Of a stretch of 64,000 bases of DNA, positions 33,656-49,614 are shown piece after piece (the stretch's first letter is position 1; each line of letters starts with the position of its first letter). The stretch is taken from contig JAJDYG010000019.1 in assembly GCA_022822855.1 (NCBI GenBank), positions 36,475-100,474 of the forward strand, given 5' to 3'. The notes beneath the pieces were generated by a model. The model saw only the letters and a list, made by a program, of their open reading frames with translations. It searched no databases and was not told the DNA's origin. The position numbers and the translations under genes were made by a program. This stretch comes from Dehalococcoidia bacterium (GTDB lineage Bacteria > Chloroflexota > Dehalococcoidia > Bin125).

Positions 33656-33671
33656 CAGCCCCTTGGACACT

Positions 33672-34110
33672 CCCTCCCCAGTCCCCGCTTCATGCGGAGC
33701 CTGCCCCCGACTTGTTCGGGGAACCCGTTCCCTCCGAGTCCGGCGCGGGCGACCACAAGGGTCGCCCCTACAAGGCTTCGATTCTGGATCACTGAAGACC
33801 TTCCCCTCCCGTCCGATGCCCCGTGCTTGACACGGGGCCCAGAGCAACCGACTCCGCCAGAGCGACTACGTCCCGCCTCACCTCGGACGCCGCGACCCAT
33901 GATCCCAGTCCCCGCTTCATGCGGGGACCCGCTCCCTCCCCCTCCCCCCTTCCCCCGTCCGATGCCCCGTGCTTGACACGGGGCCCAGACCTCCCAACTT
34001 CGCCAGGCCGACCAACGCCAGCCTCACCTCAACCGCCGAAACCCCTCCCTCCCCAGTCCCCGCTTCATGCGGAGCCTGCCCCCGACTTGATCGGGGGGAC
34101 CCGCTCCCGT
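33672..34110. repeat. Composite array of short palindromic repeat elements (families C and D) in a long non-coding stretch
   Basis: cagtccccgcttcatgcgg(ag/gg) occurs 3 times and cccccgacttgWtcgggg 2 times. An ~85-bp unit ccgatgccccgtgcttgacacggggcccaga...cctcacctc is duplicated in direct orientation at ~33812 and ~33958. Confidence 0.6.
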
Positions 34111-34211
34111 CCCTCTCCCTCCGCAAACCCCAACACACTCACACCTGCCCACGCAGAACACCAGTACATATACCATCAACCTCCAACACACGTTCACAGA
34201 TAGGACCGGCC

Positions 34212-34544
34212 ATGAGCACCCCGCAATACACCCCGCAAGCCATCCAGGACCGCTACTGGACAATCGCCAACGACCCCAACGAACGCGGCTACTCCCAGGT
34301 CCGGGCGCTCGACTCCCTCTGTCGGCTCCTCGACCTCTTCCCGCGAGGTCAGCAGCCCGCCCCGGATCCACCCCAACCCGAACAGATCGATCCCAACCTC
34401 CTCATCGCCGGCATGACCGACGCACAGATCGACGCCCTGATCGCCAGAGAACAAGCCGAAGCGGAAGCCAAGGCCAAGGCGGAAGCCGAGCGGACCGAGG
34501 AGGACGACGAAGCGTCCAGCGAGGAAGAGGATGATCCGCTCTAA
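34212..34544 (+). CDS. Hypothetical small protein with acidic/Ala-Glu-Lys-rich C-terminus
   Basis: 110-aa ORF with ATG at 34212. N-terminal half is protein-like (YWTIANDPNERGYSQVRALDSLCRLLDLFP). C-terminal EAEAKAKAEAERTEEDDEASSEEEDD. Confidence 0.3.
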   Translation: MSTPQYTPQAIQDRYWTIANDPNERGYSQVRALDSLCRLLDLFPRGQQPAPDPPQPEQIDPNLLIAGMTDAQIDALIAREQAEAEAKAKAEAERTEEDDEASSEEEDDPL

Positions 34545-34672
34545 TACCCCAACCGCGTTTTTTTCTCTCGCACGCACGCCCAGAACCCGACGACCAGCGG
34601 GATCCGGCCCCGCACACCCACTTCCTGCCTCTCCCAAACAGCGAGGTCTGGTCTTCCGCACCCTGCCTCAGA

Positions 34673-34740
34673 GGGACCCCCTCTGTCACTTCGTGACATC
34701 TCCCCCTTGGATCGGGGGAGAAAGGGGAGGGAGGGGTTTC
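34673..34740. repeat. Family B structured repeat
   Basis: ccccctctgtcacttcgtgacatctcccccttggatcgggggagaaagggg. Confidence 0.55.
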
Positions 34741-34749
34741 GGCGCTGTG

Positions 34750-34835
34750 GAGGTGAGGCTGGCGGTGGTTGGCCTGGCGGAGTTGGTTGCTCTGGGCCCC
34801 GTGTCAAGCACGGGGCATCGGGAGGGGGCGGGGGA
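34750..34835. repeat. Inverted copy of the ~85-bp family D element found at 33812 and 33958
   Basis: Its reverse complement reads ccgatgccccgtgcttgacacggggcccagagcaaccaactccgccaggccaaccaccgccagcctcacctc. Confidence 0.55.
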
Positions 34836-34856
34836 GGAGCTGTTGCGGGCTGATGG

Positions 34857-37517: not shown

Positions 37518-37901
37518 TTAGATGCAGGAGCGGGCCTGGGAGGCACCGCCGCCAGCGGCGGTGTCGAAGCTCGAGCCGCAGGCGCAGGAGTGCGAGGCGT
37601 TCGGGTTCGAGATCGAGAAGCCCTGCTTCATCACATCGTCGATGTAGTCGACGCGCGAGCCGGCGATTAGCGGGGCCGATTCCTCGTCGACGAGGAAGCG
37701 GACGCCGTTCTTCTCGACGATCTGGTCGCCGGTTTCGGCGTCCATCGCGAGGGCCATGCCGTACTGGTAGCCGGAGCAGCCGCCGCCGACCACGAAGACG
37801 CGCAGCGCGCCCTCGGCGAAGCCCTTGTCCTCAAGCAGCGACTTGGCTTTCTCCGCCGCGAGGTCCGAAACGTCCAGCATCTCAGTCATCTGAAAGACCA
37901 T
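37518..37901 (-). CDS. Iron-sulfur cluster insertion/assembly protein (IscA/SufA/ErpA HesB family)
   Basis: RVFVVGGGCSGYQYGMALAMD and C-terminal CACGSSF are the three conserved Cys of A-type carriers. Confidence 0.65.
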   Translation of the reverse strand: MVFQMTEMLDVSDLAAEKAKSLLEDKGFAEGALRVFVVGGGCSGYQYGMALAMDAETGDQIVEKNGVRFLVDEESAPLIAGSRVDYIDDVMKQGFSISNPNASHSCACGSSFDTAAGGGASQARSCI

Positions 37902-38019
37902 GAAGCAGTCCTCTCAACAGGATGAGTTCACATACGAGCATAACCGACGTCTATGCCGCCCCGCCAGTGCCGGCCGCAGCGCGGCCAACGACGGCAGGCT
38001 ACTCCGTTACTCTGACCTC

Positions 38020-39183
38020 ATGGAACGTGCGTATTTTGACCACGCGGCGACGACTCCTCTGGACCCTCGGGTGTTGGAGGCGATGGCGCCGGCATTGCAG
38101 CATGGATGGGGGAATCCCTCGGGGATTTACCGCGAGGCCCAGTACGCGGCAGGGCTGTTGGACCAGGCTCGGGATGATATTGCGGGGGTGCTGGAATGCT
38201 CTCCTTCAGAGGTCGTGCTGACCTCGGGCGGCACGGAGTCCGACAACCTGGCGATTCGCGGAGCGGCGCTGGCCCGTCAGCACGCGGGTCGGCACTTGAT
38301 CACCCAGGCCACCGAGCATCATGCGGTGCTGCACACGATGGAGCAGCTCGAGCATGAGGGCTTCGAGTTGACAGTGCTGGGCGTCGACGCGGACGGGTTT
38401 GTCGATCCGGACGAGGTTGCCTCGGCGGTTCGCGAGGACACGACGGTCGTCAGCATCATGCTGGCCAACAACGAGATTGGGGCTGTGCAACCGCTGGCCG
38501 AGATCTCGCGGGCGGTGAAGGAGCGCAATCGGCGCGCGATTGTGCATACCGACGCCGTGCAGGCGGCGGGCGCGGTCGATATCCGTCCCGACGTGCTGGG
38601 CGTGGACCTGGTCTCGCTGACGGCTCACAAGATCTACGGACCGAAGGGCGCAGGCGCGCTCTATGTGCGGCGCCGGACGCCGCTGCAGCCGTTGCAGCTC
38701 GGCGGCGGTCAGGAAGAAGAGCGCCGGGCGGGCACGGAATCGGTGGCCCAGGCGGTGGGTCTGGCGACGGCGCTGACCCTGGCGGAAGAGGAGCGTGCGG
38801 CGCGGACGGACCACGCGTCGGAGCTGCGCAATCGGCTCTGGCGAGAGCTGAACGAGCGCGTCCATCCAATCAGGCTGAACGGACCGTCCGACTGGTCGCG
38901 GCGGCTGGCGAACAACCTGAATGTGAGTTTCCCCGGCGTCGAGGGCGAGAGCATCCTCCTGCAGCTTGATCTGGAGGGATTCGCCGCCTCCTCCGGCAGC
39001 GCCTGCAGCACGGGCAGCACCGAGCCGAGTCACGTGCTCAGCGCGATTGGTCTGGATCCCGACACCGCCCACGGCACCCTGCGTCTCAGTCTGGGCCAGT
39101 CGAACACCGAGGAACAGATCGACAGTATTGCCCGGTCGATCGAGCAGATCACGGCACGGCTACGGGCGCTGTCGCCTGTATAG
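38020..39183 (+). CDS. Cysteine desulfurase (IscS/NifS class V aminotransferase)
   Basis: YFDHAATTP ... VLTSGGTESDNLAIRG ... SLTAHKIYGPKGAGALYV (PLP-Lys) ... SSGSACSTGSTEPSHVL (active-site Cys loop). Confidence 0.7.
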   Translation: MERAYFDHAATTPLDPRVLEAMAPALQHGWGNPSGIYREAQYAAGLLDQARDDIAGVLECSPSEVVLTSGGTESDNLAIRGAALARQHAGRHLITQATEHHAVLHTMEQLEHEGFELTVLGVDADGFVDPDEVASAVREDTTVVSIMLANNEIGAVQPLAEISRAVKERNRRAIVHTDAVQAAGAVDIRPDVLGVDLVSLTAHKIYGPKGAGALYVRRRTPLQPLQLGGGQEEERRAGTESVAQAVGLATALTLAEEERAARTDHASELRNRLWRELNERVHPIRLNGPSDWSRRLANNLNVSFPGVEGESILLQLDLEGFAASSGSACSTGSTEPSHVLSAIGLDPDTAHGTLRLSLGQSNTEEQIDSIARSIEQITARLRALSPV

Positions 39184-39208: not shown

Positions 39209-39883
39209 ATGGTCACTGCGGAGCCCAGGCCGTCAGCATCACTCACGGGAACGACGCAGCCCAGGCCGCCTGTCCGTGGTGTCTTTCCGGTCCGATTGAC
39301 GCTGCCCTCCGACTGGGAGCTGACCGATGACGTACTCAGCGAAATGGGATCACTCAATGAACTGTGGCGATTCGAAGTCGACAAGTCCGGTTGTCTGCTG
39401 ATCATGTCGCCATCGTTCCCACTCAGCGGGATACGCGCCGGACGGATTCTCTCTCAGCTCGTTGTCTGGTCGGACGAGCACAATTCAGGTATCGTCGCCG
39501 ATTCCAGCTCGATGTTCCGATTGCCGAACGACGAGGTCAGGGTGCCTGACACAGCATGGATAAGCGATGAACGGTTGCAATCGGTATCTGAAGACCTGGA
39601 AGGAGCCTGGCACATCTGCCCGGATTTCGTCGTCGAAGTCCGTTCAGGATCTGACCAACTCGCAGATCTGCAGATCAAGATGGAGATGTGGGTGTCGCAG
39701 GGGGCGCGATTGGCGTGGCTCGTCGATCCGTACGAGGACGCGCTCTGGATCTACCGACCGGAGCAAGAGCCGGAGCGTCTGCAGCGGCCCGACAGAGTGA
39801 CAGCGACCGAGATCGCCGACGATCTGGTGATCGACTTCACCCGCATCTGGCCGGATCGGAAGGCTCGCGATGGTCACGGCTGA
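39209..39883 (+). CDS. Uma2 family (DUF820) PD-(D/E)xK endonuclease-like protein, copy 1
   Basis: LELTD..L.E..SLNE.W..E.D ... CPDFVVEVRS ... MEMWVSQGARLAWLVDP is the DUF820 pattern. Confidence 0.55.
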   Translation: MVTAEPRPSASLTGTTQPRPPVRGVFPVRLTLPSDWELTDDVLSEMGSLNELWRFEVDKSGCLLIMSPSFPLSGIRAGRILSQLVVWSDEHNSGIVADSSSMFRLPNDEVRVPDTAWISDERLQSVSEDLEGAWHICPDFVVEVRSGSDQLADLQIKMEMWVSQGARLAWLVDPYEDALWIYRPEQEPERLQRPDRVTATEIADDLVIDFTRIWPDRKARDGHG

Positions 39884-40550
39884 GCGATCTGAGGCAGCGG
39901 GCCTCGCGGCCACGGTCGCGTCAAGGGGAGCCTGGGAGACTGCGCCGCGGGCGTTTCCACTGCGCCTGCAATTGCCGCGCGACTGGGAGCTGACGGACGA
40001 GCGACTCCTGGAGTTGGGGTCGCTAAATGAAGAGTGGTACCTCGAGGCCGACTGCGAGGGAGGACTGTTCATGGCGCCGCCACCAGGACCGCTGAGCGGC
40101 AAGCGGGAGTTGCGGATCGGCTCGCAGATTCTCAACTGGAGTGACGCCGCCAAGAGAGGGGACGCATTTCCTTCGGCCACATTTCGGCTGGCAAATGGTT
40201 GGCGGCGCGCACCAGACGCGGCCTGGGTCAGCGATGAACGTCTCTCAGGGATCGCCGCCGACGATGAGGGGGTCTGGGCAGTTTGTCCCGACTTCATAGT
40301 GGAAGTGCGTTCAGCGAACGATCAACTGGGTCTCTTGCGAGAGAAGATGGAGATGTGGGTGTCGCAGGGGGCGCGATTGGCGTGGCTCGTCGATCCGTAC
40401 GAGGACGCGCTCTGGATCTACCGACCGGAGCAAGAGCCGGAGCGTCTGCAGCGGCCCGACAGCGTGACAGCGACCGAGATCGCCGACGATCTGGTGATCG
40501 ACTTCACCCGCATCTGGCCGGATCGGAAGGCTCGCGATGGTCACGGCTGA
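39870..40550 (+). CDS. Uma2 family (DUF820) endonuclease-like protein, copy 2
   Basis: Same family. Its 3' ~190 bp are identical to copy 1, and it overlaps copy 1 by the 14-nt ATGGTCACGGCTGA junction. Confidence 0.55.
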   Translation: MVTAERSEAAGLAATVASRGAWETAPRAFPLRLQLPRDWELTDERLLELGSLNEEWYLEADCEGGLFMAPPPGPLSGKRELRIGSQILNWSDAAKRGDAFPSATFRLANGWRRAPDAAWVSDERLSGIAADDEGVWAVCPDFIVEVRSANDQLGLLREKMEMWVSQGARLAWLVDPYEDALWIYRPEQEPERLQRPDSVTATEIADDLVIDFTRIWPDRKARDGHG

Positions 40551-41220
40551 GCGATCTGAGGCAGCGGTCCCCGCGGCGACGGTCGCTGCAAAGGAAGCCT
40601 GGGAAGTTACGCCGGAGGCGTTTCCGTTGCGCCTGCAGTTGCCATCCGACTGGGAGTTGACGGATGAGTGCTTCCTCGAACTGGGCCGCCTCAACGAGGG
40701 CTGGCGGATTGAAGCGGACGGCGAAGGAGGCCTGCTGATCATGGCGCCAACCGGTCCGATGAGCAGTGCCCGGGGAAGCAGCGCCCTGGCTCAAATCTGG
40801 GTCTGGAGCGACGCACACGAGTCGGGAATGGTCTTCGATTCGAGCGCCACCTTCCTGCTGGCCAACGGTGATCGCCGGATGCCCGATGCAGCCTGGATTA
40901 GCGACGAACGGCTGGCGGAGATTGCCGACGACGATGACATCATCTGGCGAATCTGCCCCGATTTCGTCGTCGAGGTGCGATCACAGTCCGACCGGCTGGC
41001 GCCTCAACAGGTGAAGATGGAGTTGTGGATCTCGCAGGGCGCCCGGCTTGCATGGCTTGTCGATCCGTTGGAGGAAACGGTCTGGATTTACCGACCGGGG
41101 CAAGAGCCGGAGCAGGTCGAGCGGCCCGAGAGCGTGACGGCGACGGAGATTGCGGATGATCTGGTGATCGACTTCACTCGGATCTGGCCGCAGCGGGATC
41201 AAGGGTCAGAGACCAGCTGA
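40537..41220 (+). CDS. Uma2 family (DUF820) endonuclease-like protein, copy 3
   Basis: Same family but more diverged. The junction with copy 2 is identical to the copy 1/copy 2 junction. Confidence 0.55.
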   Translation: MVTAERSEAAVPAATVAAKEAWEVTPEAFPLRLQLPSDWELTDECFLELGRLNEGWRIEADGEGGLLIMAPTGPMSSARGSSALAQIWVWSDAHESGMVFDSSATFLLANGDRRMPDAAWISDERLAEIADDDDIIWRICPDFVVEVRSQSDRLAPQQVKMELWISQGARLAWLVDPLEETVWIYRPGQEPEQVERPESVTATEIADDLVIDFTRIWPQRDQGSETS

Positions 41221-42399: not shown

Positions 42400-43182
42400 G
42401 TGACCACTCCTCGACGCGACGAATGGCAGCCCGACCAGTACGCCCGCTTCAAGGCGGAGCGGGAGCAGCCGTTTTACGACCTGTTGGACCTGGTCGAGGC
42501 GATTCCAGAGGGCCGGGTCGTCGATCTGGGCTGCGGCACGGGCAAGCTCACTCGAGTGCTGCACGAGCGGACGCAGGCGGCGGAGACGGTTGGGCTGGAT
42601 CGCTCCGACGCGATGCTGGAGCAGACGGCGCAGTACGCCGGCGGAGGCGTCCGGTTTGAGCGGGGCGACATCGGGGAGTTCTCGGACTCCGGGCTGGACG
42701 TCGTCTTCGCCAACGCGTCGATCCAGTGGGTGCCCGACCACGCGGCGCTGTTTCCCCGGCTGGCAGCGACGCTCGGGCCGGGCGGCCAGCTCGCGGTGCA
42801 GATGCCGGCCAACGAGGATCATCCCTCGCACGCGGTCGCTCGGGAGGTGGCAACCCACTCGCCGCACGCCGAAGCGCTGGGCGGCTTCGTCTACCGCCAC
42901 TCGATTGAGCCGGAGGAGTGGTACGCCGAGCAGTTCGCGCGGATTGGCTTCGCCGAGCAGCACGTGCGAGTCCAGGTCTACCTGCACCGGCTGCCGGGGC
43001 GGGAGGATGTCGTCGAGTGGGTCAAGGGGTCGCTGCTGACCGGCTACCGCGATCGGATGGCGGCGGAGGACTACGAGCTGTTTCTGGCCGACTATCGGGA
43101 GCGGTTGCTGTCGGTGCTGCCGGACGAGCGGCCGTTCCTGTATCCGTTCAAGCGGCTACTGCTGTGGGGGCGGATGGGGTAA
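42400..43182 (+). CDS. tam: Trans-aconitate 2-methyltransferase-like class I SAM methyltransferase
   Basis: QPDQYARFKAEREQPFYDLLDLV ... VVDLGCGTGKLT ... VFANASIQWVPDH closely matches the Tam family. GTG start. Confidence 0.55.
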   Translation: MTTPRRDEWQPDQYARFKAEREQPFYDLLDLVEAIPEGRVVDLGCGTGKLTRVLHERTQAAETVGLDRSDAMLEQTAQYAGGGVRFERGDIGEFSDSGLDVVFANASIQWVPDHAALFPRLAATLGPGGQLAVQMPANEDHPSHAVAREVATHSPHAEALGGFVYRHSIEPEEWYAEQFARIGFAEQHVRVQVYLHRLPGREDVVEWVKGSLLTGYRDRMAAEDYELFLADYRERLLSVLPDERPFLYPFKRLLLWGRMG

Positions 43183-43473
43183 GCGGGTGTCAATTTCTGC
43201 TAGTTTTTCCTAGTTTCGACCAAGTATTTTCGCCTCGTTATGTTCGGGATTCTTGCGGATTTCCTGTGCTTTGCTGGGTTTCGTGATCGGGGTTCGGGTT
43301 TCAGGCGGGAAATTTTTTCCGCCGGCCGCCGACGCAGCGAAGCCGGGGGGTCCGGAGCTAGTCGCTCTCCTGTTCTTGGTTCATGATAGCGGGTTGTTGG
43401 AGGGTTTGTTGGACGCCCTGTTGACGCCGAGGTATATCCTGTCATTGTGGCGAACCGCTGAGGGAGCGTGAAC

Positions 43474-43644
43474 ATGACGACTCAGGAAGAATCGAGACCG
43501 GCAACGCTCTCGGAGTTGTTCCTGGTTCGAGATCAACTCAACAGCCGGATCGATGACCTCCAGAAAGTGATGTTCTGGGGATTCGGGCTGTTGGCGGCGC
43601 TGCTCATCGCATTGCTTGGTGTGGTCCTGAGCGGAGCAGGCTGA
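43474..43644 (+). CDS. Small (56 aa) single-pass membrane protein with N-terminal helical segment; paralog of 47734-47982
   Basis: ORF below the 60-aa track cut-off: ...LNSRIDDLQKVMFWGFGLLAALLIALLGVVLSGAG. Shares N.RIDDL...W-G...LLxALLG with the 82-aa protein. Confidence 0.3.
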   Translation: MTTQEESRPATLSELFLVRDQLNSRIDDLQKVMFWGFGLLAALLIALLGVVLSGAG

Positions 43645-43650
43645 CCAACC

Positions 43651-45279
43651 TCACCCCTCCAACTTCGGCTGTACGCCTTCCCGACGGCGGCGGCGCGGGG
43701 CCTTGCGGAAGGTCTGGGGGGCGGCGAAGCGGGGGTAGTCGGGCTGGGCGCCGTCGAGGAGCTGCTCGATGGTCAGGATCTGGACCTTCGGATAGCGGTT
43801 GCCGGGCAGACTCTCCGGCTCGTAGAAGCCCGCGCCGATCGCTTCCTGGCGCATGGGCTCGGTCGGCTCTTCGAGCGTGATGAAGATGCCGACGGCGGCT
43901 TCCTCGCGATCCATGTCGCCTTTCAGCGTGGCGATCATCCCGCGGTTCACGTGGCCGCTCTTGACCTGGACGATGATCCGCCTGGCCTTGCCCGAGTTGT
44001 CGTCGAAGAAGTTGATGTAGCCGTCGATGCCGGAGTCGGCGCCCTTCTTGCCCGTCGCGGGGCGGGCGTCGACGAGGCCGAGGGCCCAGTACTCGAACTG
44101 GTAGCGGCCGTCGTGCTCCGACTCCGTCGCCAGCGCCCGAGCGCTGGCGACGTCCTGGGGCAGACCGATCACTGAGTACTCGGACAACTCTGAGCCGAAC
44201 GTGTCGTGGAGGCGGTGTTTCATCAGCGACACGGCAAGATGCGTGATGTCTATGCCGATCCAGCGCCTCTTCAGGCGCTCGGCGACAGCGACCGCGGTAC
44301 CGCATCCGCAGAACGGATCGAGAATGACATCGCCTTCGTTGCTGCAGGCACTAATGATGCGCTCAAGTAGCGCTTCAGGCTTCTGGGTCGGATATCCGAG
44401 ACGCTCTTGGTGCCAGGAGCGTAAAGCTTCAATGTCGGTCCAATTGTCCTGAACGGCCAGACCTCGCGCCTCGTCCAGATACCGCTTGATACGAGGTATG
44501 CCGTTCCGCGTGTAGAAGATTCTTCCCTCGGCGTCCAGGCGAGCCATCGTTGACTCGGGAACGCGCCACAATCTGGTTACGCCCTTCCATTCATATGTAT
44601 AGCCACCTCCTTGCAGTCCACCAGCCCCCAGGTCTCCGGACATGAAGCGCCGGCCATCATCATCCGTGTATCGATAGTACTGTTCAACGTATTGAGGATC
44701 GTAGTCTTGGTACTCTTGATTCCAGAGGTAATCGCTTGAGTTCGAAAAGAACATCAGAACATCGTGGACCGAACCGTATCTCCTTGCATCGCTGTGAGCG
44801 CTTGTCCTCTTCCAGATGATCTCGTTGCGGTAGTTGTCATGTCCGAACACCGCGTCCAACAGCAGCTTGATGTAGTGGCTGGCCGTCGGGTCGCAGTGGA
44901 GGTAGATGCTCCCCGTGGGCTTGAGCACTCGGCGGAGTTCGGCCAGCCGCTGGGCCATCATCGTCAGGTAGGCCATCATGTCGTTCTGGCCCAGGAAGGC
45001 TCGCATCGCCTGGAGCAGGCTTGCGAGCCGCTCCGGACCCTGCGTCACCACCTCGCGGTAGGCGGCCTCCGAGCCAAGGTCCCAGTGCCAGGTGTCGTCG
45101 AAGGCCGTGATCTGCGCGGCCGAGTCCTCGCCCGTCTTCTCCTCGAAGAGGACGTTGTAGGTGGCGTTGGAATTGAAGGGCGGGTCGAGGTAGATCAGGT
45201 CGACGGACTCGTCGGGGATGTGTTCGCGGAGGACGCTGAGGTTGTCGCCGAAGTAGAGCTGGTTGGTCCAGGTGGTCAT
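43651..45279 (-). CDS. N4/N6 DNA methyltransferase (beta class) fused to C-terminal Mrr-like restriction endonuclease domain
   Basis: DPPF motif (DLIYLDPPFNSNATY), SAM motif TQKPEALLERIISACSNEGDVILDPFCGCGTAV, and a C-terminal GADSGIDGYI ... RIIVQVKSG (D..QxK nuclease-like core). Confidence 0.65.
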   Translation of the reverse strand: MTTWTNQLYFGDNLSVLREHIPDESVDLIYLDPPFNSNATYNVLFEEKTGEDSAAQITAFDDTWHWDLGSEAAYREVVTQGPERLASLLQAMRAFLGQNDMMAYLTMMAQRLAELRRVLKPTGSIYLHCDPTASHYIKLLLDAVFGHDNYRNEIIWKRTSAHSDARRYGSVHDVLMFFSNSSDYLWNQEYQDYDPQYVEQYYRYTDDDGRRFMSGDLGAGGLQGGGYTYEWKGVTRLWRVPESTMARLDAEGRIFYTRNGIPRIKRYLDEARGLAVQDNWTDIEALRSWHQERLGYPTQKPEALLERIISACSNEGDVILDPFCGCGTAVAVAERLKRRWIGIDITHLAVSLMKHRLHDTFGSELSEYSVIGLPQDVASARALATESEHDGRYQFEYWALGLVDARPATGKKGADSGIDGYINFFDDNSGKARRIIVQVKSGHVNRGMIATLKGDMDREEAAVGIFITLEEPTEPMRQEAIGAGFYEPESLPGNRYPKVQILTIEQLLDGAQPDYPRFAAPQTFRKAPRRRRREGVQPKLEG

Positions 45280-45432
45280 GTCCCCACTCTACCTCCTACA
45301 ACAGACTTGTCCCACGGAGGGAAAGGAGCGCAGAGGTGCCCTCTCCCCTCCGTGATTGTCGCGCATGCAGGAGTCCATTCGAGTAGCGCATGTCGAAGGG
45401 GAGAACAACGTACTTGACTCGCATTTTACCAC

Positions 45433-46386
45433 TCACAGCGACTCACGTAAGGCGTACCAGTTATATCTCCCCGCGTCCAGGGGCTGAGCAGTGACCTGCA
45501 CCATATCGTTCAGCAAGAGTCCAACAAAGATCGACCAGGGCTCACTAGATTCGAAATCTACTATGTGTCCTTGCGGCTCCGGTGTGAGTTCTATTCTAAC
45601 CAAGGAATGTTCCGGCATCTTGCTGTCTTTGGTTTCGTTAGCACTAACCAGTATGTTCTTCTTGCCTGCGCTATGATTGAGCGCGACCGCCAGATCTATA
45701 CGATCGCGGTGCCCCAGCCCATGCTGACGTACTAAGTGTTCATAGCTCAGCCGCAGGCTGAGAAAATCCGTAGCGTCGAAGGCTATCACAAAGAAAATCG
45801 ATTCCCAGTAGCGGCCGGCGCCAAGCGCTTCGCCAAAGGGCTTTGCGGTGGCGATGGGATGATAGGGATGCGGATCACGGTACGCAACGCGCGACAGTGA
45901 CTTGTAGCTCTCGCACTTGTCAAAGCAGTCTCGAAGCTGGCTCGCATGCAGCCTTGTCTTCACTTCTCCACATGCGTAGGTAGCCTCAACCGGGAATACT
46001 TCAGCTCCATCAGGCCCAGCCGCTGCCCGAATCCTTGGGCAGTTGAAGCGATCATAGAGAATGATGTCCATTTGCTTGGAAGTGCTTCCATAGGAATCTA
46101 CTACGAAGCCATGTGAGATACCGACCTTCTCAGGAGGCACGCTGCTGAGAGCTTCACGGATTCGGGATTCGATACTCTGACCAATCTCTCCCGGACTCGG
46201 AAGCTTGCGATCACCCTCAATGTCAGCGATCAAGCGCGTTTGCATGTCGTAAAGGGACTCTGCGAGTTGGCCACGCGTTGGTGCGGGTGCATTCCCGCCA
46301 TCGTTGGGAGCCCGCGTCGGTCGGGGATTTACGATTGGTAGGCTGCGTTCTTTCTGTCGCCTGCGATTCTCTTTCGACATTGCCAT
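45433..46386 (-). CDS. Uncharacterised PD-(D/E)xK nuclease-like protein (candidate restriction/defence endonuclease)
   Basis: GFVVDSYGSTSKQMDIILYD ... AEVFPVEATYACGEVKT gives a D-x(n)-E-x-K arrangement. It sits directly upstream of and co-oriented with the MTase gene, in an AT-richer segment. Confidence 0.35.
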   Translation of the reverse strand: MAMSKENRRRQKERSLPIVNPRPTRAPNDGGNAPAPTRGQLAESLYDMQTRLIADIEGDRKLPSPGEIGQSIESRIREALSSVPPEKVGISHGFVVDSYGSTSKQMDIILYDRFNCPRIRAAAGPDGAEVFPVEATYACGEVKTRLHASQLRDCFDKCESYKSLSRVAYRDPHPYHPIATAKPFGEALGAGRYWESIFFVIAFDATDFLSLRLSYEHLVRQHGLGHRDRIDLAVALNHSAGKKNILVSANETKDSKMPEHSLVRIELTPEPQGHIVDFESSEPWSIFVGLLLNDMVQVTAQPLDAGRYNWYALRESL

Positions 46387-46882
46387 CCTACTCACGATTC
46401 TCAGGACACCTTGACCACGCCCCATTGTCGTCAAGCAGGTTCCGCCAATCAAGGAATTGGCTGCAATCCACGCAGTGGCGCACCGGCCTAGGCGATGACA
46501 GGTGCGATATCCCCAATGGTGGTTTTGCGCCGCGCGATGTTGAAATCGTAGCCGCGCTGCAGGTTGAGCCTAAACGCCGGCGTCGTGTCCAGCGGCTGAA
46601 GTGCGGTCCCGATAGTGCGCTGTAAACTGAGTGGACAGCGATCAGGAAGAGATGCGCGATGCCGGACGAAGAGAGGGGCTTGACCGTCGGGCAGGCGGTG
46701 CGCGGCGACGGGCCGCCGATGGACCCGGAAGAGGCCCGCAAGCTCCGCGAGCGCGTCTCCGGGAGCTGGGAGAAGTACTTCCGCGAGTACCCGGCACTCG
46801 AGGAAGCCTACGGGCAGCACCGACGCCCCAGCTTCGAAAGCGGCTAGCCAATCACGGTATTCATCGACGGAGTGTTCAGGCC

Positions 46883-47125
46883 GTGGAGCGGATTTACTCC
46901 AAGGACACCGACACGCTGATGTTCGTCTTTTCCGACGAGCGCATCGTTGACCATGTCGATCTCGACTACCAGACGCTGCTCGAGCTGGACTGCGACGGCA
47001 ACCCGGTCGCATTGACCATCGAGCACGCCCGCGAACGCGAGGTCTTGCGGCCTCCTGATGCCGGCGGGCTGCCTAATGCTACGACCGCACCGACCTCTGT
47101 ACGTGCTCGCGGAGCGCCTGGTTGA
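46883..47125 (+). CDS. DUF2283-like small protein
   Basis: RIYSKDTDTLMFVFSDERIVDHVDLDYQTLLELDCDGNPVALTIEHARER resembles the DUF2283 pattern (Y D.EAD.L.I.L ... D.D.dG.lvGIEI). Putative GTG start; the long upstream in-frame extension looks non-coding. Confidence 0.3.
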   Translation: MERIYSKDTDTLMFVFSDERIVDHVDLDYQTLLELDCDGNPVALTIEHAREREVLRPPDAGGLPNATTAPTSVRARGAPG

Positions 47126-47363
47126 TCTTGGTCTGATAGCCCCGACCCTCCTGCGCCTGCGCCTTGAACCAGGCGATCACGTCGGCATCGATTCTGAGCG
47201 TGATCTGTTGCTTGACCGGCCGGTAGAACTTGCCTCGCACGGCGCCCGTCCAGTCAGTCGTTTCCGGAATGTCACTGAAGTCGATCTGGTCATCCGGGAG
47301 AGCTTCCAAGGCCCTAATCTGAGCCTGCGACTCGGGCGACAGATCACTCATTTCCTTCTTCAT
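47079..47363 (-). CDS. brnA: BrnA antitoxin (CopG/RHH-like)
   Basis: SDIPETTDW ... ITLRIDADVIAWFKAQAQEGRGYQTKINQALREHV is the BrnA family pattern. Overlaps the brnT 3' end. Confidence 0.55.
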   Translation of the reverse strand: MKKEMSDLSPESQAQIRALEALPDDQIDFSDIPETTDWTGAVRGKFYRPVKQQITLRIDADVIAWFKAQAQEGRGYQTKINQALREHVQRSVRS

Positions 47364-47634
47364 ACTCCCGCCTCTCTGACCTCGACGCCTTTCGTGCCGA
47401 GATGACTCGCGCGCTCAGTTCTGGCCCCATGGGCGTTTCCTCAAACCAGGTGTGAATCACCACAATGACCTGGGACGCAACCATGCCGATTGTCCGCCAG
47501 CGTTGCTCCTGCCGATAATGATCCTCGACCGTGATCGACATCGGATCGTCGAAGACTGCGACCGCAGTTGGAAAATCGATGTCGTGCTTGCGAAGGTTGG
47601 CAACGTTCTTCGCGGGATCCCAGGTCCATCTCAA
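47344..47634 (-). CDS. brnT: BrnT toxin (DUF497 ribonuclease)
   Basis: WTWDPAKNVANLRKHDIDFPTAVAVFDDP ... RVISARKASRSERREYEEG matches the BrnT/DUF497 consensus. Start appears to be TTG. Confidence 0.6.
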   Translation of the reverse strand: MRWTWDPAKNVANLRKHDIDFPTAVAVFDDPMSITVEDHYRQEQRWRTIGMVASQVIVVIHTWFEETPMGPELSARVISARKASRSERREYEEGNE

Positions 47635-47733
47635 TCCCTCCGGCTCCTTCCGTCACTACGACAGTGTAACTACCCCGCCCATCGTGAGCATGCAGGATGA
47701 GAGAGCCTCTGTCGCCAGACTCGGTCCTGCCTA

Positions 47734-47982
47734 CTACCCAGCCCGGGCGAGTAGGGCGCCGAGGATGGCGAGGATTGAGGCGTATCCGACGGCAATGCCC
47801 CAGGTCAGGAGTCGGAAGCGGGCGTTGACTTCCTGTCTCAGATCGTTGAACCGCGCGTTCACGTCTTTGCGCATGTCGTCGATCCGCGCGTTGCCGTCGT
47901 CGATGCGCTGATTCGTAATGGTTAGCGCGTCGCGGATCCCCGATGGATCACTCGGCTCGCCTGGGTGCTCGCTCGTGACCAC
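47734..47982 (-). CDS. Small (82 aa) coiled-coil/single-TM protein, XhlA-like architecture; paralog of 43474-43644
   Basis: Internal repeats RIDDGNARIDDMRKDVNARFNDLRQEVNARF followed by TM segment LLTWGIAVGYASILAILGALLARAG. Confidence 0.3.
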   Translation of the reverse strand: MVTSEHPGEPSDPSGIRDALTITNQRIDDGNARIDDMRKDVNARFNDLRQEVNARFRLLTWGIAVGYASILAILGALLARAG

Positions 47983-48108
47983 GCCATTGCCTCCGACCCT
48001 CGCGCCCGCTGTAGTGCATTCTTATCAGTTGGATAACACCAACACGGGGGTCATGCGCTCCCCTTTGCCTACCGAGGATCCACTCGGCCCTGCGTTGAGG
48101 CAGCGGCG

Positions 48109-48250
48109 CCGAGCGGGTCCCCGAACAAGTCGGGGACTGGGAGGCGAGCCGGTCTCCGAACGAGTCGGGGAACGGGAGCCGAGCGGGTCCCCGAACGGGT
48201 CAGGGAACAGGTGCCGAGCGGGTCCCCGAACGGGTCGGGGAGTGGGAGCC
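48109..48250. repeat. Four tandem copies of a ~35-bp unit, each a small hairpin (gtccccgaacRRgtcgggga)
   Basis: gagcgggtccccgaacgggtcggggaacgggagcc with minor variants, repeated head-to-tail four times. Confidence 0.6.
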
Positions 48251-48288
48251 GGGCGGACGCCCGCGTGAAGCGGGGAGCGGCCCCCTCC

Positions 48289-48323
48289 GTCGCATCGCGA
48301 CACCTCCCCCAAAGGGGGAGGTC
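48289..48323. repeat. Family B structured repeat (short form)
   Basis: ccccctccgtcgcatcgcgacacctcccccaaagggggag. Confidence 0.5.
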
Positions 48324-48369
48324 TTGGGATCCTCGTGTATCCTGAGCGCTGAGGCTGAATGGAGTTGGG

Positions 48370-49077
48370 ATGGTTTCTCGGACGATTGACACTGGCGGGG
48401 CTCCGATCCCTCTGCTGGACCCGGTGACGGATGTGGAGGCCGAGCTTCGCTCTCAGCTTCTCGTCTCGACCGTGGACAAGGTGTTCGGCTGGGCGCGGCG
48501 GTCGTCTCTCTGGCCGGCGATGTTCGGGCTGGCCTGCTGCGCGATCGAGATGATTGCGACGGCCAACGCCCGCTACGACCTGGCCCGCTTCGGGGCCGAG
48601 GTCTTCCGCGCGTCGCCGCGGCAGGCCGACCTGATGATCGTGGCCGGCACGGTGACCTGGAAGATGGCGCCGCCGGTTCGGCGCATCTACCTGCAGATGG
48701 CCGAGCCCAAGTGGGTGATCTCGATGGGCTCCTGCTCGAACATCGGCGGACCCTTCGCTCACGGCTACTCGACGCTGCCGGGCGTCAACAACGTGGTCCC
48801 GGTCGACGTCTACGTGCCCGGCTGCCCGCCGCGTCCCGAGTCGCTGCTGGCCGGTCTGATGCTGCTGCAGCAGGTGATCGACGACGAGCACGCGCACAAC
48901 GGTCGCAAGCGGCGTCCGGAGCCGACCGGCGACTTCTCGAAGATGCTGCCCGAGGGCGACCCGATCCGGGCGGAGCTCGAATCGCTGTTCCCGCCGTACC
49001 TGACCGCCGACGGTCAGCCGCGCGACCGCTTCACCGGCGCGCTGCCGCACGACGAGAACTACTTCGCCAGCCGCTAA
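48370..49077 (+). CDS. nuoB: NADH-quinone oxidoreductase subunit B (NuoB/Nqo6-like) with C-terminal extension
   Basis: GLACCAIEM (CCxxE) ... [11 protein letters not shown] ... VPGCPPRPE are the four N2-cluster Cys contexts. ~60-aa C-terminal tail. Confidence 0.7.
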
Positions 49078-49128
49078 ACGTTTGAGCGGGCGAAGCCGCT
49101 AGACTTCGAGCGCTAGAGGGACAGAGAC

Positions 49129-49614
49129 ATGGTCTTCGGCAAGGGCATCGCCAAGGGATTGATGACTGTCGTCAAGCACGTGCGCCGCGAGCCGGTCACG
49201 GTCCAGTTCCCCGAAGAAGAACGCGACATCCCGCCGCGCGCGCGTACCAACCTGGTCTGGTTCGTCGAGCGCTGCACCGGTTGCTCGACCTGCGCCCAGA
49301 GCTGCCCCGACGGCTGCATCCTGGTCGACACCGAGCCGCGCGAAGACGGCTCGTTCCTGGTCAACCGCTACGAGATCGATTTCCGGCTCTGCATGTACTG
49401 CGGTCTCTGCACCGAGGCCTGTCCTTATGAGGCAATCCAGGTCGGCGGGTCGTACACCAACGTGGTCACGAACCCGAACAACCTCTACAAGGACAAGGAA
49501 GACCTGATCGAGCTGGCCAACGAGTACCTCGAGCAGCACGACTGGGTCTACCCGAACGGCCAGCAGGCGGTCCAGCAAACGGTCCACCCGACCGAGCGTC
49601 GGCAGCATCACTAG
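49129..49614 (+). CDS. nuoI: NADH-quinone oxidoreductase subunit I (NuoI, 2x[4Fe-4S] ferredoxin)
   Basis: CTGCSTCAQSCP and CMYCGLCTEACP ferredoxin motifs with NuoI-type spacing and N-terminus. Confidence 0.7.
   Translation: MVFGKGIAKGLMTVVKHVRREPVTVQFPEEERDIPPRARTNLVWFVERCTGCSTCAQSCPDGCILVDTEPREDGSFLVNRYEIDFRLCMYCGLCTEACPYEAIQVGGSYTNVVTNPNNLYKDKEDLIELANEYLEQHDWVYPNGQQAVQQTVHPTERRQHH

Follow-up and report, generated by a model that had tools for sequence, protein, structure and literature searches.

A tam-nuoB defence and toxin-antitoxin hotspot in an uncultured Dehalococcoidia bacterium, probably remodelled by recombination without a self-mobile element

The interval between a tam-like methyltransferase gene and nuoB was investigated in a stretch of 64,000 nucleotides, hereafter termed the window, from the metagenome-assembled genome (MAG) of a Dehalococcoidia bacterium (NCBI GenBank assembly GCA_022822855.1, contig JAJDYG010000019.1, positions 36,475 to 100,474 of the forward strand). 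Between the stop codons of the tam-like gene and of a small gene, sm82, lies a compact islet of low guanine-plus-cytosine (GC) content (43183-47733). Its genes include a DNA methyltransferase (MTase) fused to an Mrr-like nuclease domain, a DUF6602 nuclease gene, a brnT/brnA toxin-antitoxin (TA) pair and several gene remnants (Table 1). The islet is probably the current filling of a defence and TA hotspot that is flanked by core genes and is turned over by homologous and illegitimate recombination, without a self-mobile element. Judged from its sequence, it is not one inserted element and was assembled piecemeal.

Composition of the islet

The average GC content of the window was 65.4%. The islet had a GC content of 0.593, compared with 0.659 for the rest of the window, and was the lowest among windows of the same size (mean 66.0%, standard deviation (sd) 1.6, minimum 62.6%). 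A preliminary description of this DNA, made without database searches, had marked 43190-47990 as a horizontally acquired islet of lower GC content. This segment gave 0.595, and none of 1984 same-size windows elsewhere was as low (mean 0.660, sd 0.015, minimum 0.628). The two sub-stretches that were named as especially AT-rich proved to be so: 43190-43330 had a GC content of 0.496, as low as which was only 1 of 2357 control windows, and 45290-46460 had 0.545, a value reached by none of 2275. The strand-symmetrised tetranucleotide L1 distance between the islet and the rest of the window was 0.299. This distance exceeded that of all 202 controls (mean 0.155, sd 0.023, maximum 0.219) and made the islet the strongest outlier. 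The islet lay about 4 sd under the controls in GC content and about 6 sd over them in tetranucleotide distance; its composition is clearly atypical and not uniform with the flanks, as the preliminary description had held.

The low GC content was patchy. The DUF6602 gene, compositionally the most foreign part of the islet, had its lowest GC content at third codon positions (GC3), 0.57; values of 0.61, 0.67 and 0.70 were obtained for the central third of the MTase gene, brnT and the small gene sm58, respectively. Host-like values were found in the N-terminal (0.93) and C-terminal (0.87) parts of the MTase gene and in orf62 (0.90), the flanking core genes ranging from 0.78 to 0.91 (tam-like gene 0.88).

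The locus in related genomes

The locus was compared with 24 Dehalococcoidia/Chloroflexota MAGs, many of them from sponge-type MAG collections, which were obtained by scanning species-representative genomes with the tam-like protein (tam 74-86% identical) and are cited by L-numbers where they must be told apart. The cargo of these relatives was listed from tblastn and selected open reading frames (ORFs), and the lists are not complete annotations, a crude GC-frame gene caller having missed several short genes. The gene order IscA (-), iscS (+), Uma2 (+), AlkZ (-), tam (+), nuoB (+), nuoI (+) was conserved and contained two variable intervals.

The tam-nuoB interval was flanked by tam (74-86% identity) and nuoB (92-99%) in all 24 relatives, and its length ranged from 78 to 4905 bp. 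Empty sites of 78-142 bp were found in four relatives (L009, L018, L020 and L025), intervals of approximately 500-600 bp with sm82 as the only gene in five, and intervals of 0.76-4.9 kb in the other fifteen; the interval of the window, with 5187 bp, was the largest. The cargo comprised Type III restriction-modification (R-M) genes (L003), MTase-HNH fusions (L006 and L028), BrnTA as in the window (L015), a Ser/Thr kinase (L019), Uma2 nucleases, and MTase-Mrr fusions with HigBA, VapBC, DUF2806 or DUF2283 modules (L002, L013, L014 and L017). Among the relatives, L004 has the flanking genes most similar to those of the window (nuoB 99%), and it carried only a Uma2 gene at this site. The exact block of the window was found elsewhere only in Logan contig SRR16351696_20754 (7597 bp), which is 100% identical and evidently represents the same organism. 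The synteny of the block is not conserved, with tam and nuoB practically adjacent in the four empty sites. The absence of the block from the relatives, together with its atypical composition, supports the horizontal acquisition that had been proposed.

The second interval, between IscA and iscS, lies 5 kb upstream (window 37518-39183) and measured 2-6446 bp in the relatives. It is empty in the window, where the two genes overlap by 2 nt. Its cargo elsewhere included an Eco57I-type MTase with a XamI endonuclease (L013), Type III R-M genes (L019), MTase-Mrr fusions (L006 and L022) and a DnaE-like polymerase (three genomes), and rearrangements with a breakpoint at this interval were found in L009, L020 and L024. 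Exceptions to the predominance of defence and addiction genes in the cargo were the Ser/Thr kinase of L019 and the DnaE-like gene that three relatives carry in the second hotspot.

Traces of recombination and proposed mechanism

Several traces of past exchange could be read in the islet. The spacer next to the tam-like gene (43183-43415) matched L017 10793-11035 with 86% identity over 245 nt in blastn, had no match in the empty-site genomes, and leads directly into the stump of an MTase gene. The stump, which reads PRRQQGVQQTLQQPAIMNQEQESD before its stop codon, corresponds to the C-terminus of the L017 MTase, RKRQQGVQQSLQQPATMNQEQKID before the stop. Homology to the upstream region of sm58 in the relatives begins directly after this stump, approximately 45 nt before the ATG of sm58. 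A further stump, of a HigA gene, had a blastn match to L013 13223-13290, inside the HigA gene of that genome, and also to L019 and L022.

The nearest relative of the intact MTase gene depended on the part compared. The first 450 nt were 75-92% identical to all family members at the nucleotide level; positions 551-750 of the coding sequence were 96-97% identical to L013 versus 42-54% to L017, L002, L014 and L022; positions 1151-1450 were 90-95% identical to L017; and the 3' end together with sm58 was similar only to L006. Upstream of the start codon, no similarity to the locus of any relative was found. The gene is considered a recombination mosaic because its best match switches along its length. 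This mosaic, the MTase stump, the HigA stump and the antitoxin genes without partners are the grounds on which a single insertion is rejected.

As had been noted in the preliminary description, no integrase or transposase was found: no such family was matched among the ORFs of 43183-47982 that were scanned against Pfam, a search confined to the 64-kb window. The segment also lacks a tRNA, and the only candidates for terminal inverted repeats were low-identity pairs of at most 28 nt, as expected by chance.

In the mechanism that we propose, cargo would be gained, swapped and eroded by recombination, and no integrase would be needed. By one route, homologous recombination would replace alleles, with its anchors in the conserved flanks or in conserved segments of cargo genes, above all those for the N- and C-termini of the MTase; the other would consist of occasional illegitimate joins facilitated by homology. 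An L006-type segment would have replaced most of an L017-type MTase gene, with one end of the segment joined illegitimately in the tail of the old MTase gene and the other end presumably resolved by homology within the MTase gene. The target-recognition cassette of the MTase would have been exchanged recently. The HigA stump, the partnerless DUF2283 gene and orf62 without a PIN gene would be the remains of successive partial replacements and deletions. The filling now consists of the MTase-Mrr fusion, a stand-alone DUF6602 gene, an intact brnTA pair and debris, namely the MTase stump, the HigA stump and two partnerless antitoxin-like genes. In this setting the MTase would mark host DNA at the site set by its cassette, and the nuclease domain may cut unmarked DNA.

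Small genes at the hotspot edges

Two small genes, which the preliminary description had called paralogous and flanking the islet in inverted orientation, were traced in the relatives. The sm58 protein has one xNxRIDDLQK motif and a C-terminal transmembrane helix, and had no match in Pfam, NCBIfam or PADLOC. Its orthologues, 88-95% identical, lie between IscA and iscS in nine relatives (whose tam is only 79-86% identical) and are the sole occupant of that interval in six. In the window sm58 ends 6 bp from the 3' end of the MTase gene; in the IscA-iscS interval of L006 it adjoins a 92%-identical MTase gene, 9 bp apart by the called coordinates. The sm82 gene occurs at the same spot in eight relatives, 184-379 bp upstream of nuoB, and is the only gene of the interval in five of them. 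A homologue search with sm82 returned only 17 family members, all of them unnamed and giving no functional clue. At one edge of either hotspot stands one of the two genes, directed towards the interior.

The two proteins were weakly similar to each other (BLASTP 26% identity, E 9e-7; hhalign probability 93%, E 4e-7, over no more than 33 columns, in sequence prone to low complexity). Both have a coiled-coil motif of the type xNxRIDDL(R/Q)K, present in one to several copies, and a C-terminal membrane helix, and they are plausibly distant paralogues. No similarity was found between the two genes at the DNA level. Both genes and their resemblance were therefore as described, but they are not the borders of an element, as each is resident at its own hotspot in the relatives. 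Their interpretation as element termini was rejected on this ground and because they form no DNA-level repeat.

In the sm82 family (including P0218-P0232), the number of 11-residue xNARIDDLRxD repeats varies, with lengths of 64-110 aa. The family was confined to a handful of Chloroflexota-type metagenomic sequences.

Hairpin repeats

The region upstream of nuoB carries a 4.3-copy array of a GC-rich hairpin unit of 35 nt with an 8-bp stem (GTCCCCGA/TCGGGGAC), termed unit A. The two hotspots account for 17% of the 525 kb that were screened and contained 11 of the 12 matches to this unit with at most 3 mismatches; counted as independent sites, 7 were inside the hotspots and 1 was outside. The copies usually stand at junctions of cargo modules or just before nuoB or iscS (L013 6242-6306 and 14116-14158, L003 15595, L014 13920, L019 11484 and 13259). 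One copy occurs in an empty site (L018 10839-10872), and the unit is therefore assigned to the native upstream region of nuoB. A second hairpin repeat, CCTCCCCCAAAGGGGGAGG, has further copies at window positions 1051 and 2359 and at several loci. The repeats may be REP-like elements, insulators or recombination sites.

Elsewhere in the window, a 1.2-kb intergenic region (33660-34140 and 34600-34850) is dense with several short hairpin-repeat families and has a strongly negative GC skew (-0.3). The same region (33660-34850) contains a 146-nt unit repeated 1.8 times. One frame of an unannotated stretch at approximately 34200-34550, which these repeats surround, resembles an acidic C-terminal tail; it contains stop codons, and no gene was confirmed there.

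Alternative explanations

The MTase gene and the adjacent DUF6602 gene might form a classical two-gene Type II R-M operon that was acquired as a unit, an explanation that we consider unlikely. The two genes are on the same strand and 153 bp apart, the DUF6602 protein has an intact D...ExK site in a restriction-enzyme-like fold, and the MTase recognition region and the DUF6602 gene are the two pieces with the lowest GC3. These two pieces, however, are separated by the high-GC3 N-terminal part of the MTase gene, and the similarity to relatives stops at the MTase start codon. MTases with the same recognition region (L013, 93% identical; L006, 92%) have no DUF6602 neighbour, nor was one found in three distant contexts, and the DUF6602 gene has no counterpart in any of the 24 relatives. 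The closest DUF6602 homologues (62% and approximately 40% identity) were not linked to an MTase in four contexts, where the one MTase-HNH gene nearby was absent from a parallel contig, and no restriction endonuclease model of PADLOC matched the DUF6602 protein. A cognate R-M pair was rejected as the principal explanation since the linkage is not conserved.

It is still less probable that the islet is a decayed self-mobile element (an integrative island, a transposon or an integron-like array) that has lost its recombinase, with the small genes or the hairpins as its ends. The inverted placement of sm58 and sm82 at both ends of the islet, the over-representation of hairpin unit A in the two hotspots, and a cargo of TA and small defence genes that is typical of sedentary integrons would all suit such an origin. 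Against it stand the lack of integrase and transposase matches among the ORFs scanned against Pfam, the lack of tRNA and DNA-level terminal repeats, the presence of sm82 at the site in five cargo-free relatives and of sm58 at the other locus in relatives, and the occurrence of the hairpin unit in the empty L018 site. The cargo genes also point both ways, unlike integron cassettes, and the content is a patchwork whose pieces do not share one nearest relative. A mosaic could also be produced if strains that co-occur in the metagenome had been joined into an assembly chimera, the source being a MAG and strain-variable, repeat-bearing hotspots being prone to mis-joins by assemblers; moreover, the Logan contig ends within the hairpin array. 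That contig nevertheless reproduces the sequence from sm82 through tam, AlkZ and Uma2 at 100%, across all internal junctions, and the junctions make biological sense, with a gene stump that stays in frame and abuts a promoter-proximal region. A chimera is accordingly regarded as very improbable.

Turnover of a core-flanked hotspot by recombination is thus preferred, and several points weigh against it. The recombination events are inferred and none was directly observed. The donors were deduced from 24 species-level relatives, none closer than approximately 86% in tam, which leaves it uncertain how many events took place and in what order. An integrase might conceivably have acted in trans from elsewhere in the genome, beyond the 64-kb window, and a site-specific mechanism might be behind the hairpin repeats that stand at module junctions. 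The defence functions are all assigned from domains, and PADLOC, when run on the islet, recognised components but no complete known system. The Logan contig may share reads with the MAG, and is in that case not fully independent evidence against misassembly.

The MTase-Mrr fusion

The MTase-Mrr protein matched Pfam N6_N4_Mtase at aa 26-351 (152 bits) and Mrr_cat and NA-iREase1 at aa 410-509 (33.1 bits against a cut-off of 21, and 38.7 bits against 27, respectively); its PADLOC matches were MTase_II/III only. The MTase part resembles Type III Mod models and structures. Motif IV (DPPF) comes first, followed by the variable region and motif I (FCGCGT), an order that defines a beta-class MTase with a Type III Mod-like layout. 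The DPPF motif suggests N6-adenine methylation. DPPF, FCGCGT, E396, D415, D419 and Q438-V-K440 were invariant in 25 homologues. The C-terminal domain looks competent as a nuclease, despite the word 'inactive' in the name NA-iREase1, because E396, D415, D419 and Q438-x-K440 are among these invariant residues. In fold comparison, this domain agreed with the restriction-endonuclease-like fold; a sequence search of the PDB with the domain alone returned no relative.

The family is large, with more than 8000 homologues at E<1e-20 that are named 'DNA methyltransferase' only, and all of the best 120 homologues have the same architecture. The neighbours of the gene differed across all seven Dehalococcoidia loci and three distant contexts. 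With no conserved partner gene, the fusion is regarded as a self-contained unit. In the most economical model, to which we give somewhat less than an even chance, it would be a single-chain enzyme that methylates its own site and cuts unmethylated foreign DNA with the Mrr/FokI-like domain; as an alternative, the C-terminal domain would only aid DNA binding or have another role. More speculatively, the family may be an uncharacterised single-chain R-M class, with a beta-class MTase in front and a FokI/Mrr-like domain behind, whose specificity is reprogrammed by swaps of recognition cassettes between hotspot copies. If this doubtful class were real, the two linked hotspots would, together with the MTase-HNH fusions at the same site, be a natural shuffling ground for such enzymes, and the GC-rich hairpin repeats at module junctions might act as recombination or insulation sites.

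The beta-class MTase-HNH fusions are encoded at L006 12057-13400 and L028 480-1790, both at the tam-nuoB site, and at L054 2650-4026. They represent a parallel architecture, with another nuclease and the same kind of MTase.

The DUF6602 nuclease

The DUF6602 protein matched its Pfam family with 74 bits, and PADLOC assigned it to the PD_DExK and NucC effector models. It was related to Serratia NucC by phmmer (E 1e-11). A structural model (pLDDT 83) matched NucC in Foldseek with E 7.5e-17 and a TM-score of 0.78 across the whole of NucC, the next-best matches being ordinary Type II enzymes with E values weaker by approximately thirteen orders of magnitude. The residues D105, E139 and K141 (D...ExK) were invariant in 30 homologues. 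The four genomic contexts of homologues contained no cyclase gene and no conserved MTase.

Toxin-antitoxin genes and remnants

The brnT and brnA genes form a co-oriented, toxin-first operon with an overlap of 20 nt (Pfam BrnT_toxin 85.8 bits against a cut-off of 34.5; BrnA_antitoxin 61.1 bits against 26.1). The pair may stabilise the region or abort infection.

In L002, a homologue of orf62 (90% identity, tblastn) is followed after 3 bp by a PIN-domain gene, and another homologue, in L024, adjoins DUF2283, as in the window; orf62 had no family match in Pfam or NCBIfam. From this position alone, orf62 is probably a VapB-type antitoxin gene that was left without its PIN toxin. A conserved ORF of 79-109 aa precedes DUF2283 in L014, L017 and L022 and is missing in the window. 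The label 'DUF4258' was considered for the 79-aa ORF and dropped, since there was no Pfam match. The antitoxin-like orphans (orf62 and DUF2283) may be debris, or may neutralise related toxins.

Gene content and neighbouring genes

The features of the locus are listed in Table 1. The gene calls of the preliminary description (an N4/N6 MTase-Mrr fusion, a PD-(D/E)xK protein, DUF2283 and brnT/brnA) agreed with Pfam and PADLOC. Its statement that the islet carries only defence and addiction genes was nearly right, with the reservations that sm58 has no known function and that DUF2283 and orf62 lack their usual partners. Promoter and terminator scans gave counts no higher than in shuffled sequences, and Rfam gave nothing useful for 42900-48500 at E values of up to 0.1.

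Table 1. Positions of the features of the tam-nuoB locus in the window
Feature	Position	Strand	Evidence or remark
tam-like class I S-adenosylmethionine-dependent methyltransferase, left core flank	42400-43182	+	Pfam Methyltransf_31/25/11
AT-rich spacer, old cargo, not empty-site sequence	43183-43415	.	common with the L017 tam-MTase spacer
Stump, 3' end of an earlier L017-type MTase gene	43358-43432	-	translation PRRQQGVQQTLQQPAIMNQEQESD, then stop
sm58, small tail-anchored membrane protein	43474-43644	+	56 aa from ATG; 58 aa from GTG at 43468
Beta-class DNA MTase with C-terminal Mrr/FokI-like PD-(D/E)xK nuclease domain	43651-45279	-	542 aa; Pfam
MTase C-terminal nuclease domain, aa 365-542	43654-44187	-	
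MTase target-recognition region, low-GC cassette	44380-44829	-	GC 0.54, GC3 0.61
DUF6602 NucC-fold PD-(D/E)xK protein	45433-46380	-	315 aa from ATG; ORF to 46452 from TTG
HigA-type antitoxin stump, 3' end only, last ~40 residues	46488-46610	-	translation ends ...ALQPLDTTPAFRLNLQRGYDFNIARRKTTIGDIAPVIA, then stop
orf62, probable VapB-type antitoxin without PIN toxin	46659-46847	+	position in L002
DUF2283 protein without its usual upstream partner	46883-47125	+	Pfam DUF2283 28 bits, above threshold
BrnA antitoxin	47079-47363	-	Pfam BrnA_antitoxin
BrnT ribonuclease toxin	47344-47634	-	Pfam BrnT_toxin
sm82, small tail-anchored membrane protein, resident at the right edge of the hotspot	47734-47982	-	position in relatives
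Hairpin-repeat tandem array, 4.3 units of 35 nt	48105-48280	.	
Second hairpin repeat	48300-48326	.	
nuoB, right core flank	48370-49077	+	tblastn 92-99% identity in 24 relatives
nuoI-like gene	49129-49614		after nuoB; NCBIfam NuoI match

Three tandem Uma2-family paralogues (PF05685, putative restriction endonuclease) lie at window 39209-41220 and are 60-67% identical overall. Copies 1 and 2 hardly differ over their final ~67 residues, which suggests recent gene conversion. A fourth, more distant Uma2 paralogue is found in the tam-nuoB hotspot of about ten relatives and not in the window. On the right side, nuoB and the nuoI-like ferredoxin gene (48370-49614) stand as an isolated pair, further nuo genes being absent from both sides, and this pair was kept in all 24 relatives. 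It may belong to a complex other than the canonical complex I.

Comparison with known systems

The MTase-Mrr fusion resembles the single-chain R-M enzymes of Type IIG/IIC (MmeI and BpuSI) and the Type ISP enzyme LlaBIII in having MTase and nuclease domains in one polypeptide. Characterised Type IIG enzymes such as MmeI and BpuSI have an N-terminal nuclease followed by a gamma-class MTase. In the fusion, by contrast, the putative nuclease is C-terminal and the MTase is of the beta class; the cleavage domain of the Type IIS enzyme FokI is the comparison for its C-terminal domain. Allelic exchange of the central target-recognition domain is established for beta-class MTase genes, Type III mod among them, as in the phase-variable mod alleles of Haemophilus, Neisseria and Helicobacter. 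The present gene is like mod alleles in that conserved N- and C-terminal MTase parts surround a central variable region that appears to have been exchanged by recombination. Unlike in Type III systems, there is no Res subunit here, and a Mrr/FokI-like nuclease domain is fused to the C-terminus instead; simple-sequence repeats that would give phase variation were not seen. The BrnTA pair is an ordinary member of this type II TA system, with nothing notably different.

The DUF6602 protein has the full-length fold and the intact D...ExK site of NucC, the effector nuclease of CBASS and type III CRISPR systems. It is only 17-20% identical to NucC, however, and no CD-NTase/cyclase, Cas10 or type III CRISPR locus was found in the islet, its flanks or the four homologue contexts; with no cyclase or Cas10 nearby, activation by cA3 as in NucC is unsupported. 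Damona is a single-gene DUF6602 anti-phage system of Vibrio integron cassettes that reportedly protects Vibrio from phages (bioRxiv 10.1101/2024.07.02.601686). By the description in that preprint, it has the same pair of model matches (Cas PD_DExK and CBASS small endonuclease) as the protein described here, and the DUF6602 gene of the islet likewise stands alone. Given the NucC fold, the absence of a cyclase nearby, the solitary homologues and the Damona precedent, our best guess is that the DUF6602 protein would be a stand-alone anti-phage nuclease of the Damona type.

As a whole, the locus agrees with core defence hotspots as they have been described in the literature. In Pseudomonas aeruginosa, core defence hotspots (cDHS) have no obvious mobile element and a lower GC content, and recombination at their conserved flanks was proposed as the way in which they move (Johnson et al. 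2023, PMC10250203). A paper on E. coli defence islands, which stresses carriage on mobile elements (PMC10121019), was set aside as a precedent because it fits less well for that reason. Like the cDHS (PMC10250203), the present hotspot has fixed core flanks, sizes from empty to several kilobases, lower GC content, diverse R-M and defence cargo, and no mobile-element class. It differs in being smaller, with 5.2 kb at most compared with a cDHS median of 26 kb, in belonging to uncultured Chloroflexota that were compared across species rather than strains, in a cargo rich in TA modules and gene stumps, and in having a second linked hotspot with similar cargo types 5 kb away. With this locus, the picture of core defence hotspots is widened to Dehalococcoidia that are uncultured and partly associated with sponges, and in which the dynamics of defence genes have been little studied. 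Its value lies in unusually legible traces of remodelling without a mobility gene (stumps, an MTase of mosaic make-up and the transfer of a resident gene from one hotspot to the other), and in drawing attention to abundant uncharacterised single-gene candidates, namely the MTase-Mrr fusion and the stand-alone NucC-fold nuclease, as well as to the hairpin repeats at module junctions. Current views are not overturned by these results, and the tam-nuoB hotspot is a clean example of a core defence hotspot rather than a surprise.

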